Source: a phage. From it: 49,119 nucleotides of DNA. The translations under genes and the position numbers were made by a program. Below, one piece after another: positions 40,513-44,840 of this stretch. The notes under the pieces are model-generated. The model was given only the letters and a program-made list of their open reading frames with translations, was not told the DNA's origin and did not search any database. The stretch's first letter is position 1; the number at the start of each line of letters is the position of its first letter. The DNA lies in the sequence record PZ465523.1, one strand, 5' to 3'.

Positions 40513-41181
40513 ATGCACTTACCAAATGGCGCGCAAATTTTCGTGGAAACCTCTCGCGGAGAAGAGATTGAGGCGACCGCTGTCACTAACGCAAAAAATC
40601 CTGTTGCTACAGTTGCATCTAAGGGCGACATGGCAAAAGGTGATTACGTTATTGTAACTCAGTCAACTTGGGCTAAGATGGTTAGTCGGGTATTGATTGT
40701 TACTGACGCTCAGGGAACAAGAATTACTCTTGCTGGAATTGACACTACTGATACTCTTGTTTTCCCGGCTGGCGGTAAGATGAGCTTTGCAAAAGTTACT
40801 GGCTGGACTGAGATTCCTTGCGTACAGGAGATTGGTCAGGACGGCGGCGAACAGCAGTACTACACTTATCAGTGTTTGTCCGACGATAAGGAGCAGCAGA
40901 TCCCGACATTTAAATCTGCGATCTCACTAACTTACACCTTCGCGCACGAATTTGATAACCCGATCTATCCAATTCTGCGTAAGCTAGATTCTTCTGGTCA
41001 GGTAACTGCGGTTCGTATGTATGTTCCAAAAGCGAACGAGATGCGCATGTGGGCTGGAATCTTGTCTTTTAACGACATTCCATCTACGCAAGTAAACGAA
41101 ATGGAAACAGTACAACTCGCCGTATCCCTGAAAGGTGATTTTACTTTCGTCTCATCCACTCTGGCATCTCCAGGAGCCTAA
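40513..41181 (+). CDS. Major tail protein
   Basis: 222 aa; RBS AGGAGA; followed by terminator and tail chaperone genes. Confidence 0.65.
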   Translation: MHLPNGAQIFVETSRGEEIEATAVTNAKNPVATVASKGDMAKGDYVIVTQSTWAKMVSRVLIVTDAQGTRITLAGIDTTDTLVFPAGGKMSFAKVTGWTEIPCVQEIGQDGGEQQYYTYQCLSDDKEQQIPTFKSAISLTYTFAHEFDNPIYPILRKLDSSGQVTAVRMYVPKANEMRMWAGILSFNDIPSTQVNEMETVQLAVSLKGDFTFVSSTLASPGA

Positions 41182-41193
41182 ATCACATCCATA

Positions 41194-41220
41194 GGGGGCT
41201 TGCGCCCCCTTCTTCATTTC
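41194..41220 (+). terminator. Terminator after major tail gene
   Basis: GGGGGC-ttgc-GCCCCC stem followed by T-rich tract. Confidence 0.6.
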
Positions 41221-41254
41221 TGTAGAATCATCGTATCAACTTTATTCACTTCAC

Positions 41255-41274
41255 TTTTAACAAAAAGTGCTATC
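41255..41274. promoter_or_regulatory. Reversed box TTTTAACAAAAAGTGCTATC directly before tail chaperone leader
   Basis: Followed by CAACCAATCAGGAGAA and ATG. Confidence 0.5.
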
Positions 41275-41293
41275 AACCAATCAGGAGAACATC

Positions 41294-41611
41294 ATGGCTA
41301 AATTCAATTTTGTGCTGGGCCAGCTTCCAGACTTCAAACTTCCGGTTACTTTCACCATGCCAAACGGTGAAGATGCTACGATTATTTTTACCGTACGCCA
41401 CCTTTCCAGCAAAGAAGTACAGGATATGTACACTAAGCAGGGAGAAATGAATGATAGCGATTTTATCACCAAGATCGCGTCCGGTTGGAATATTGAAGAA
41501 GAATTTAACGAAGAGAACGCGCGAAAACTGGTCCAGTATTACCCTTCCGCAGCGTACAATCTGACAGCCACTTATATTAAGGCTCTCGCCGGACACCGCG
41601 CAAAAAACTAA
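41294..41611 (+). CDS. Tail assembly chaperone (lambda G-like)
   Basis: Position between major tail and tape measure genes; acidic protein; ends just after slippery heptamer. Confidence 0.65.
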   Translation: MAKFNFVLGQLPDFKLPVTFTMPNGEDATIIFTVRHLSSKEVQDMYTKQGEMNDSDFITKIASGWNIEEEFNEENARKLVQYYPSAAYNLTATYIKALAGHRAKN

Positions 41612-41928
41612 AAAGGGCGGTTTATCTGTTATATCAGAAACCGCCGACAGAAGAGCAATTACGATCGGTTGGCCTTAGTCTTTCTGACTATGAGGACGAA
41701 GAACCGGAGACGATAATCGGCGACGCTGAGATGGTTAAGTCGTGGAATGTTTTTACGTCAATGCTAACTCAGTGGAGAAGTTCAGGCGCTGGCGCTTATG
41801 GTCTTGATTATAATGTTTTGCCTATGTTGTTCAAAATCTATAAAATAGATGATGAAGAACTGGCATTGCAGGACGTTAGAATCATGGAAGCGAAAGCGCT
41901 TGAAATGATTGCTAAGCAGAATAACTAA
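41294..41928 (+). CDS. Tail assembly chaperone frameshift product (GT-like), via -1 shift at A_AAA_AAC 41602..41608
   Basis: -1 frame is open from slippery site to stop at 41928; hairpin GGCGG...CCGCC starts 8 nt downstream. Confidence 0.55.
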
Positions 41929-41950
41929 GCCGCCGTTTGGCGGTTTTTTC
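41929..41950 (+). terminator. Terminator-like hairpin before tape measure gene
   Basis: GCCGCC-gtttg-GCGG followed by TTTTTT. Confidence 0.5.
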
Positions 41951-41966
41951 GTATATAGGGGACTAT

Positions 41967-44840
41967 ATGATTGATAAAGTAGCAGGTTTGTCTCTTGACG
42001 TTGACGTGTCAACAGTACAGCGCGCAGTCAAGTCACTGAAGGAGTTTTCAAGGGCCAACGACCAGGCCGCTGACTCTATGGGATCTTTGATCAATGAGGC
42101 AGAAGTAGCGAAGCAGAAGGCTAAAGAACACGCAGAACAACTCAAGCGACAGAGAAAAGAGTACGAAGCGGTAGAGAAAGCAATCGATCCTACAGTTGCA
42201 AAAATGGAGAGGTTAAAAGTTGCTTCCCAGCAGCTTGATAAACTCTGGCAGCAAGGCGTCGTTCCAGATGACACGTTTTTCCGTTTAGGTGAAATGCTGG
42301 ATATGCAAAACGCAAAACTTGCTCGCAGTCGGGCGATGCTGACGGAAGAGGGTCAGGCTGCATTGCAGGAAGCGAAAGCAAAAGAGCAGGCGGCAGCACG
42401 AAGCAAGGCATTCATGGATGCCCTGAATGGTCAAGTTAACGCGATCGGCAAGACTCACGCTGAATTGATGGAACTGAAAGCGGCTGAGCTTGGCTTATCG
42501 AAAGAAGCAGCGCCACTAATCGCAAAACTGAAAGATCAGGGTCGGGCAATGAATGCCGCAGGTATTAGCGCAGGGCAATATAGGCAGGCAATGCGAATGC
42601 TTCCTGCACAGATTACAGACGTCGTTACATCTCTTGCGTCCGGTATGCCAGTTTGGATGGTTGCCATCCAGCAAGGCGGCCAAATCAAGGATTCTTTCGG
42701 CGGGATCGGCAACACGTTTAAGGTATTGCTCAGTTATATTAATCCGGTCACAGCAGGTATTGGTGTTCTTGTCGGCTCTTTAGGTCTTCTTGCGAAAGCT
42801 GGTTATGACTCTTACAAGTCAATCACTGATATGCAAAACGCCCTCATTGAGACTGGCGGTTATGCAGGCGTTACGGCTGATGACCTTGATTCTGTTGCCA
42901 AAAAGATCGCACAGACAAGCAACTCAACCGTTGGAAGTGTTCGTGATATTGTAACGGAGTTGGCGAGTTCTGGTAAGTACACCCGCGAGCAGATCAAGAA
43001 CATCACTAAGGCGACGGCTGAGTGGTCGTCAGCAACTGGAAAATCAGCAAGCCAAATCATTGCTGAGTTCGACAAAATCGCAAGCGATCCGGTTAAAGGT
43101 CTGGAGAAGTTAAACGAACAATATAACTTCCTGGAGAAAGGACAACTGACATATATCGACACGCTAAGCCGCACTAAGGGTGAGACTGAGGCGGTGTCTG
43201 AAGCCACGAAATTATTCGCAGAAGTTATGGAGAAGCGAATGAAGTCGATCGCAGACAATGCCACACCTCTTGAAAAAATGTGGAACGATATTAAGCAGTG
43301 GGCATCTGATGCGTGGGGATGGGTAGGGGATCATACTCTCGGGGCGCTTAACCTGATTATTGATGTGGTTCAGGGTACAGTGATTCAGGTAAAAATGATT
43401 CTTGCGAAAGGTGATGAGTACATCTCAAACTTTATCGCATCTGCAATCAAGGCCACGCAATCCCTGCCTGGCATGAGTGATTTTGGTGCCGATGTGCTGA
43501 AGGAGCAGGAGAACATCGTAAAAAGTTCTCGCGACAACTACGACCAGTTGGCATCCGAGCTTGACGCTATTAACGCTCGTGTAGAAAAAGGAGAGATGGG
43601 ATACGTTGAAGCGATGAAGCAGCGCCGCACTCTTGAAAAGCAGTACAGTGAGGAAACTAAGGAAGCAATAAGGAAAGAAGCTGAAGAGATCGAGAAGCGA
43701 AACCGAGAGCGAAATAAGCAGTCGAAAATTGTACGTTCACCGACAGAGCAATTCGACAAGGAGTTAATTTCACTCAAAGCGCAGCTTAAGGTTTTGCAGG
43801 AGCACAAGGGGATCGGGCAAAAACTTTCCGCACAGAGAAAGGCGCTTTTTACAACCGAGGCTACGATTGCTGTTCTTCGTGAAGCCAGTTCTAAGCGTCA
43901 GTTGTCTACGGAAGAAAAAGCACTACTTGCAAACCAGGAGAAAGTTTTAGAGCTTGCGAAACAGAAGGCTGAGATTGGCGATCAGATTGTTAAGCAGCAG
44001 CAGTTGAACGCTCTTACCGATAAATCACTGAAATTTGTCAATGATTTGACGGCAGCTACAGAGCAGCTAAACGCGTCTCGCGGGATGAGCACCCGAGAAA
44101 TGGAGCGACAAGCTGAGTTGGCTAAGATCACCACTGATTATATTAATGCAGGTGGCAGCGAAGGAGATGAGAAACTCCAGAACATGATCAAGGCACAAAA
44201 TGATTACTATGCCGCTGAAGATGCCAAGCGTGCTGACTGGTTGGCAGGTGCTGAAAGCGCATTTGCAGATTACGGCGATTCTGCAATGGATATGTATGGT
44301 AACGTATATGATATCGCGTCAAGTTCACTTAACGGAATGAGTGATATGATGACCCAATTCCTGACTACAGGTAAGGCAAACTTTGAGGACTTTGCGAAAA
44401 ACATCATTAGCATGATTATAAAGATGATTGCTCAGATGGTAATCTTCAATACGATCTCAGGCATGATGGGCGGTAAGACGTGGAGCTTTGCTGGAGTGGC
44501 GTCGTCTGGTGCTTCTGTGGCATCACAGGCAACTCCTACGCCTGCCGCCTCCGGTTTTAGGTCTTTATCATCTGGCGTTGCTGTTACCTCGCTTGCTGCC
44601 GCAGCTGGTAGTGTGGCAACATCTGGATTTAACGCATCTAAAGCAGCGCCGAAGGCAGTAAACCAATCAGCAGGTGGGACGGTCGTTGACGTTAGGGGTA
44701 TGGAGGTTAAAGTTGACAACGGTTCAGATCCGAGAGGCATTTCTCAGGGTGTAGAAATGATGTTCAAAAAAATGATTCGTGAGTCTTGTTCTCAGGGCGG
44801 CGAGGTTTATAATTACATTCAGGAAAAAACAGGAGGTTAA
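41967..44840 (+). CDS. Tail tape measure protein
   Basis: 958 aa; long coiled-coil region and Gly/Ser/Ala-rich C-terminal part. Confidence 0.8.

Follow-up and report, generated by a model that had tools for sequence, protein, structure and literature searches.

The segment between positions 41602 and 41645 of the window, by which we mean the whole 49,119-nt stretch of phage DNA that was analysed, very probably constitutes the programmed -1 frameshift signal of a T1-type tail assembly chaperone gene. Several lines of sequence evidence favour the frameshift reading: the anatomy of the site, its synteny, purifying selection in the -1 frame, conservation of both the slippery heptamer and the stop codon adjacent to it, and the stability of a hairpin located downstream. 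A preliminary description of the locus had proposed a programmed -1 frameshift of the G/GT type; every sequence-level feature of such a signal was found, with a predicted fusion protein as its product.

The phage is a Tunavirus, and exhibited ~94% identity over 25 kb to the Shigella phages phiL and Shfl1; T1, when compared with positions 41200-42000, was 91.5% identical over 801 nt. The genes are arranged in the order tail tube gene, chaperone, -1 ORF, tape measure gene, which is the position characteristic of G/GT-type pairs. The major tail (tube) protein gene (40513..41181, + strand), a homologue of T1 CPTT1_037, matched Pfam Phage_tail_3 (E = 2.2e-69), and the tape measure protein gene (41967..44840, + strand) matched Pfam TMP_2 (E = 1.1e-74) and Tape_meas_lam_C (E = 7e-25). 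A terminator-like hairpin with a T-run after it (41927..41946, + strand) separates the -1 ORF from the tape measure gene, and the T1 record carries an annotated rho-independent terminator at the homologous site. A second terminator-like hairpin with a T-run was observed 3' of the tail tube gene, at 41193-41210; the occurrence of such hairpins on both sides of the chaperone pair suggests a stepwise attenuation of transcription along the tail operon. The ORF list places the starts of the chaperone, tube and tape measure ORFs at 41267, 40459 and 41937, respectively, upstream codons that are GTG, ATG or TTG, whereas the likelier starts are 41294, 40513 and 41967; these downstream ATGs are favoured for all three genes by homology to the T1 annotation and by Shine-Dalgarno sites.

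The upstream ORF, the analogue of G (41294..41611, + strand), encodes a tail assembly (tape measure) chaperone of 105 aa. Its product matched Pfam Phage_TAC_4 (PF08748) over the full length (E = 6.8e-37; 126.9 bits, cut-off 21.1), matched phrog_569 and phrog_17368 as well, and is a homologue of T1 CPTT1_038. A Shine-Dalgarno-like AGGAG, read from the sequence at 41283..41287 (+ strand), is positioned 6 nt 5' of the chaperone ATG; on the strength of this motif and of T1 homology, ATG 41294, and not the GTG at 41267 chosen by the ORF finder, is taken as the real start. In the T1 record the homologous ribosome binding site is annotated for the short and the joined CDS alike. Among 15 Tunavirus relatives, variable sites within the chaperone ORF numbered 3, 0 and 26 at codon positions 1, 2 and 3, respectively.

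At its 3' end the zero frame reads ...GGA CAC CGC GCA AAA AAC TAA, which sets AAAAAAC (41602..41608, + strand) in X_XXY_YYZ phase (GCA AAA AAC). The zero-frame stop TAA (41609..41611, + strand) adjoins the heptamer directly, and falls within the 7-nt spacer (41609-41615) that precedes the hairpin. The preliminary description had ended the G-like ORF at 41611, placed A_AAA_AAC just before that stop, described the -1 frame as open to 41928 and noted that the ORF track contains two separate pieces only; all of this was borne out when read from the sequence, the -1 frame being open from 41581 to a TAA at 41926-41928 and the two listed pieces spanning 41267..41611 and 41731..41928. The string AAAAAAC is not in itself rare, with 24 copies on both strands of the window against 14.4 expected, whereas in-phase X_XXY_YYZ heptamers (Y = A or T) are rare, numbering 4 in 2,940 structural-gene codon positions; the chance of finding an in-phase heptamer within an overlap of ~10 codons is ~1.4%. 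An upstream Shine-Dalgarno-like stimulator of the dnaX type was not evident in 41585-41601.

Conservation of the site, which the preliminary description had named as a check, was assessed in 185 related loci (L001-L093 and L095-L186), taken from phages deposited in GenBank and from IMG/VR and gathered with an 8-sequence alignment of the T part and with single proteins. The tally was based on the 128 loci that were unique around the site and possessed a clear upstream zero-frame ORF; it took the -1 configuration only, and a few GC-rich loci lacking a zero-frame stop near the start of the match were left out. The site motif was A_AAA_AAC in 93 of these loci, G_GGA_AAC in 28 and a one-codon motif only in 7, in a sample biased to A-rich sites by the collecting patterns KKLKRAV. 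and KKLIEAAR, which overlap the slip site; the other collecting patterns and a tblastn search were free of this bias. An in-phase slippery sequence was kept in 121 of 128 unique loci, the conservation that is characteristic of G/GT signals; the refuting condition named in the preliminary description, a heptamer not conserved among related phages, was thus clearly contradicted. Throughout the TAC_4/DUF1799 family, the stop adjoined the heptamer (0 nt) in 120 of the 121 unique heptamer loci; the heptamer-to-stop distance in other tail-chaperone data sets averages 26-36 nt (PMC10885494). JL1-like phages carry a -1-frame stop immediately 5' of the heptamer, which restricts the shift window to the heptamer alone.

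The codon that contributes position 1 of the heptamer specified V, E, A, T, R, Q or K before AAA_AAC and L, R or T before GGA_AAC. Position 1 nevertheless always matched X, being A before AAA_AAC and G before GGA_AAC, whatever the amino acid. Because this position is synonymous in the zero frame and untranslated in the -1 frame, yet constant, its conservation is best explained by re-pairing of the P-site tRNA; in this comparison of sequences, such strict conservation is best explained as the signature of tandem (two-tRNA) slippage.

The one-codon motifs of the remaining 7 unique loci were GCA AAG GTC, GCA AAA GTT/GTC and CAA AAG CCT, each followed by TAA. The second half of the heptamer was lost in L014, L015 and L083-L087 (Rogunavirinae), in L007 and L008 (Webervirus) and in L012 (Klebsiella phage P61_2), where the sites lie at locus positions ~699-710 or 599-610; with that half gone, a slip of one tRNA on A_AAG or A_AAA is the only one possible in these lineages. 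They possess no downstream hairpin, and the conserved -1 peptide is kept. Close kin of the one-codon lineages (L082, L089 and L090) still carry A_AAA_AAC.

These lineages bear on the question of whether the fusion might arise from the slip of a single tRNA, rather than from a tandem slip in the P and A sites, which we regard as unlikely. Either peptidyl-tRNA-Lys would slip on A_AAA while the A site is empty, or peptidyl-tRNA-Asn would slip on A_AAC with the stop waiting (a 'shifty stop'). A one-tRNA slip must suffice in Rogunavirinae, Webervirus and P61_2, which keep only A_AAG or A_AAA, one codon and the stop; A_AAG tetramers are shift-prone in E. coli (PMC4066793), and the near-universal abutment of stop and heptamer points in the same direction. 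Tandem slippage and a slip of tRNA-Lys would also differ by one residue in their products. Simultaneous slippage would generate ...HRAKN-LKRAVYL..., a protein of 211 aa with Asn at residue 105 and CTA 41608-41610 as the next codon, whereas, were only tRNA-Lys to slip with AAC not yet decoded, the product would be ...HRAKK-LKRAV, with Lys at residue 105. The T1 fusion as deposited (AAP50000.2) reads ...HRAKK-LKRAV, with Lys at residue 105, and thus corresponds to the latter, but this junction is the choice of an annotator and not protein data. Also set against the single-tRNA slip is position 1 of the heptamer, which a two-tRNA re-pairing would hold constant irrespective of the amino acid encoded, as was found.

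A further possibility is transcriptional slippage, in which RNA polymerase would add one A within the A6 homopolymer at 41602-41607 to yield an mRNA that joins G and T in frame. Four related assemblies differ in carrying A5 rather than A6, which shows, at the least, that some polymerase or sequencer makes errors on this run. These are the IMG/VR T1-like contigs L035, L046, L088 and L091, in which, at ~596-607, the chaperone ORF continues in the +1 frame (...QRVKTKTGGLPVL...) and a TAA stands in the T frame just 5' of KLKRAV; L035 contains a second 1-nt deletion nearby. Homopolymer sequencing errors are the most likely source of the A5 runs, real run-length variants being possible. E. coli RNA polymerase slips appreciably only on runs of ~8-9 or more. 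Transcriptional slippage is very improbable, since the 28 unique relatives with G_GGA_AAC and the 7 with A_AAG or A_AAA motifs contain runs of only 3-4 A, far too short for the polymerase to slip, and yet maintain the same arrangement; moreover, a polymerase would be indifferent to how the motif is phased, to its conserved C in position 7 and to a hairpin placed 6-7 nt 3' of it, all of which belong to a ribosomal shift.

An RNA hairpin of 11 bp was predicted at 41616..41645 (+ strand), its stem divided into 7 bp (GGCGGUU/AACCGCC) and 4 bp (UCUG/CAGA), with a 2-nt bulge and a 6-nt loop. The preliminary description had reported a GC-rich stem at about these coordinates that began 8 nt downstream; the stem itself proved to be real, while its spacing required correction, as a 7-nt spacer follows the heptamer and the stem starts from the 8th nt. 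This spacer places the structure within the 5-9 nt after the heptamer at which a stable structure is located in the 3' stem-loop architecture (dnaX / IS3-type). The hairpin had a predicted energy of -16.1 kcal/mol (ViennaRNA; z = -3.8), 0 of 200 dinucleotide shuffles were as stable, and it was kept in a 161-nt fold in the MFE and centroid structures alike. Since such a hairpin might in principle follow simply from the codons for R-A-V...K-P-P, the -1-frame peptide was recoded synonymously 3,000 times as a control, with codons drawn from the window's own usage. The stability of the hairpin exceeds what the coding sequence requires; only 0.13% of the 3,000 recodings folded as stably, and their mean was -5.5 ± 2.8 kcal/mol. 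A scan of 41200-42000 against Rfam returned no family. A pseudoknot was considered and rejected, as the sequence downstream showed nothing complementary to the loop UUAUAU.

In related loci, a hairpin at 6-7 nt spacing was present in every Tunavirus and in most Tempevirinae (-13 to -20 kcal/mol), and these hairpins outdid almost all of their synonymous recodings. Hairpins of different sequence were located at exactly 7 nt in Dhillonvirus JL1 (-22.1 kcal/mol), Vibrio phage Marilyn (-20.1), a Ralstonia phage (-14.1) and the environmental contig L092 (-19.9), and many more environmental contigs likewise had different-sequence hairpins at 7-nt spacing. No structure above background was detected in Rtp-like phages, Rogunavirinae, Vilniusvirus, Webervirus-like phages, a few Tempevirinae or Synechococcus S-CBS3. 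When 45 Drexlerviridae sequences were inspected for covariation, 77% of cells were paired and double changes were few; a control on the same sequences, in which the 3' partners were slid by one column, gave an equal covariation score. Because the formal covariation is weak, we relied on the synonymous-recoding test and on the non-homologous hairpins at the same spacing. Absence from several clades, along with the scarcity of compensatory changes, implies that the hairpin cannot be essential family-wide. We conclude that it is a real, selected element in this phage, that it is a probable stimulator of the frameshift, and that, as judged from its distribution among the loci, it is a clade-level accessory and not a family-defining part of the signal.

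We would more tentatively raise a broader reading, in which the Phage_TAC_4/DUF1799 signal is a fixed unit composed of X_XXA_AAC, an abutting stop and, for many lineages, a hairpin whose distance from the heptamer is exactly 6-7 nt, with the stop acting as a functional stimulator ('shifty stop'); this we hold to be doubtful. Were it true, termination would compete with slippage at the abutting stop, and the G:GT ratio would not be constant but would track release-factor activity or growth state. The lineages without the second half of the heptamer (A_AAG GTC TAA) would then represent a distinct, one-tRNA solution.

Under the reading that we prefer, a programmed shift on the heptamer, the -1 frame beyond the slip site is protein-coding. 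This extension, the analogue of T (41608..41928, + strand), has CTA 41608-41610 as its first codon. Residues 26-103 of the -1 peptide, read from 41602, matched DUF1799 (PF08809; E = 9.1e-12, 45.5 bits, cut-off 26), and since the match starts at residue 26 the domain begins before the first Met (41731). The profile phrog_17368 describes a fused protein of 213 positions; the upstream ORF aligned on 1-107 and the -1 peptide on 107-212. The locus thereby shows the pattern of the T1-type chaperone family, with both profiles present, G before T, in two frames. No ATG, GTG or TTG occurs in the -1 frame between 41581 and 41730; the first ATG in that frame is at 41731, and is preceded by ~40-43 conserved codons that include no start codon. 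Within the 120 nt after the stop, variable sites among the 15 Tunavirus relatives numbered 3, 2 and 19 at -1-frame positions 1, 2 and 3, respectively, a pattern like that of the chaperone ORF. By this substitution pattern, the stretch before ATG 41731 evolves as coding sequence under purifying selection in the -1 frame.

A tblastn search with the -1 peptide matched 1,159 phage records, 1,145 of which covered at least 80% of the query. In a sample of 60 tblastn rows nearly all began at residue 1 or 2, and among the rows sampled identity extended down to ~32% in Vibrio, Ralstonia and Synechococcus phages. When 18 such peptides were aligned, a conserved block, K-(K)-L-x-x-A, began exactly at the slip site. 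A sequence search of the PDB with the 211-aa fusion produced only noise (E ~0.09 to proteasome subunits), with no solved homologue detectable. Like the second partner of a G/GT pair, the -1 ORF is a coding sequence that lacks its own initiation site, and by these sequence signals it is translated only after the shift.

That the downstream ORF is instead an independent gene of 65 aa, initiated at ATG 41731 without any fusion, is extremely improbable: a Met codon is present at 41731, and the ORF finder and most deposited annotations give a separate small ORF, but the coding signal upstream of 41731 contradicts independent initiation, in that both the selected codons without a start and the beginning of the DUF1799 match lie ahead of that Met, no Shine-Dalgarno is evident before it, and the starts assigned to the second ORF vary between locus positions 719 and 929 whereas the conserved peptide always begins from the slip site.

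Under the frameshift reading, most ribosomes would stop at TAA 41609-41611 after synthesizing the chaperone of 105 aa (41294-41608). A minority would slip back by 1 nt on A_AAA_AAC (41602-41608), with the hairpin at 41616-41645 located at the mRNA entrance, and would read CTA AAA AGG ... in the -1 frame to 41928. The predicted product is a fusion of 211 aa, in which the chaperone domain is joined to the DUF1799 'T' domain. If the two proteins work as gpG and gpGT do in lambda, the N-terminal part that they share would form a coat on the tape measure protein, and tail tube protein would be recruited by the rare C-terminal extension; the proportion of one protein to the other would, on this analogy, be fixed by the low frequency of the shift. 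In E. coli, A_AAA_AAC is far less shift-prone than A_AAA_AAG (review PMC5009743). Given that A_AAA_AAC is a weak site, and one of low efficiency in IS1, a low G:GT ratio is expected and the efficiency of the shift is probably low. In the accessible literature we found no experimental detection of the fusion protein in T1-type phages, the annotations being inferences.

The T1 record contains a joined CDS, CPTT1_039 ('tape measure chaperone, frameshift product'), over an identical site, and Klebsiella phage Sin4 also has a joined CDS; the published genome descriptions of Stevie and U136B, both T1-like, refer to the frameshift (PMC4319613, PMC8104045), and the feature is, therefore, already known. 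In phiL and Shfl1, the closest genomes, the join is not annotated. Among GenBank/RefSeq relatives, and in PHROGs 569, 680 and 17368, the pair widely goes under the name 'tail length tape measure protein' or 'hypothetical protein'; arbitrary internal starts are assigned to the second ORF, and joined CDSs (T1, Sin4) occur in a minority of records. The scatter of second-gene starts is what gene callers return where no real start exists.

The gene model for this phage is corrected accordingly in its predicted form, to a chaperone fusion of 211 aa in place of a chaperone and an orphan ORF of 65 aa; most GenBank relatives, the two closest genomes included, still split or mislabel the pair. Biologically, the result contributes little: since lambda G/GT, tail-chaperone frameshifting has served as a textbook example of recoding, and the present case is already annotated in T1. 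What is mildly new is comparative only: two near-exclusive heptamers, a stop fused to the heptamer, a hairpin that depends on clade, and a few one-codon lineages. The heptamer pair, the fused stop (120/121) and the clade-wise hairpin may be modestly useful to those who build frameshift predictors.

The nearest known system is that of T1, a phage of the same genus, in which CPTT1_038 and CPTT1_039 (AAP49960.1; fusion AAP50000.2) form the homologous gene pair. The sequence from the heptamer through the hairpin (GCAAAAAACTAAAAAGGGCGGTTTATCTGTTATATCAGAAACCGCC) is identical in the two phages, as are the lengths of the G protein (105 aa) and of the fusion (211 aa), and a terminator 3' of the -1 ORF is common to both; T1 differs by a few amino-acid substitutions only. 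The fusion sequence of the present phage itself is not in the public protein collection.

Xu, Hendrix and Duda are said to have described, in 2004, G/GT-type tail assembly chaperones with a conserved programmed frameshift. In systems of this type the fusion is produced in a low, constant proportion to the short protein, and the two are both required to assemble the tail and are both absent from the virion; for the T1-type pair, support for this is at the level of annotation. In lambda, gpG and gpGT are produced through a programmed -1 frameshift at G_GGA_AAG (Levin et al. 1993; Xu, Hendrix and Duda 2004, 2013, 2014; via PMC5009743), at a G:GT ratio of ~30:1 (PMC5009743). The lambda pair, like that of this phage, has the major tail protein gene on one side and the tape measure gene on the other. 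The lambda proteins match Phage_TAC_2 and Phage_tail_T, whereas those of this phage match Phage_TAC_4 and DUF1799; in Pfam the phage chaperone proteins gave no match to either lambda family, and hhalign of the T parts of lambda and this phage returned a probability of 0.6%. Lambda is a functional and positional analogue and, on these profile comparisons, not a detectable homologue. In lambda the heptamer has G as its last letter, with 15 nt between it and the stop, whereas in this phage it ends in C and adjoins the stop. The lambda shift is reported to proceed without need for a downstream structure; the present phage, by comparison, has a stable predicted hairpin 7 nt downstream.

The insA-insB' overlap of IS1 shares with this phage both the heptamer A_AAA_AAC and an E. 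coli host. Its -1 frameshift is proven and of low efficiency, sets a low level of the fusion protein, and has no established stimulator (PMC4066793). IS1 makes a transposase rather than a factor for virion assembly, and there is no relation between the proteins. Finally, the g-t slip sites of the haloarchaeal viruses HCTV-1, -2 and -5 include both of the heptamers found in the T1-type chaperone family; their hosts, unlike that of this phage, are archaeal, and the likeness is known at the level of the slip site.
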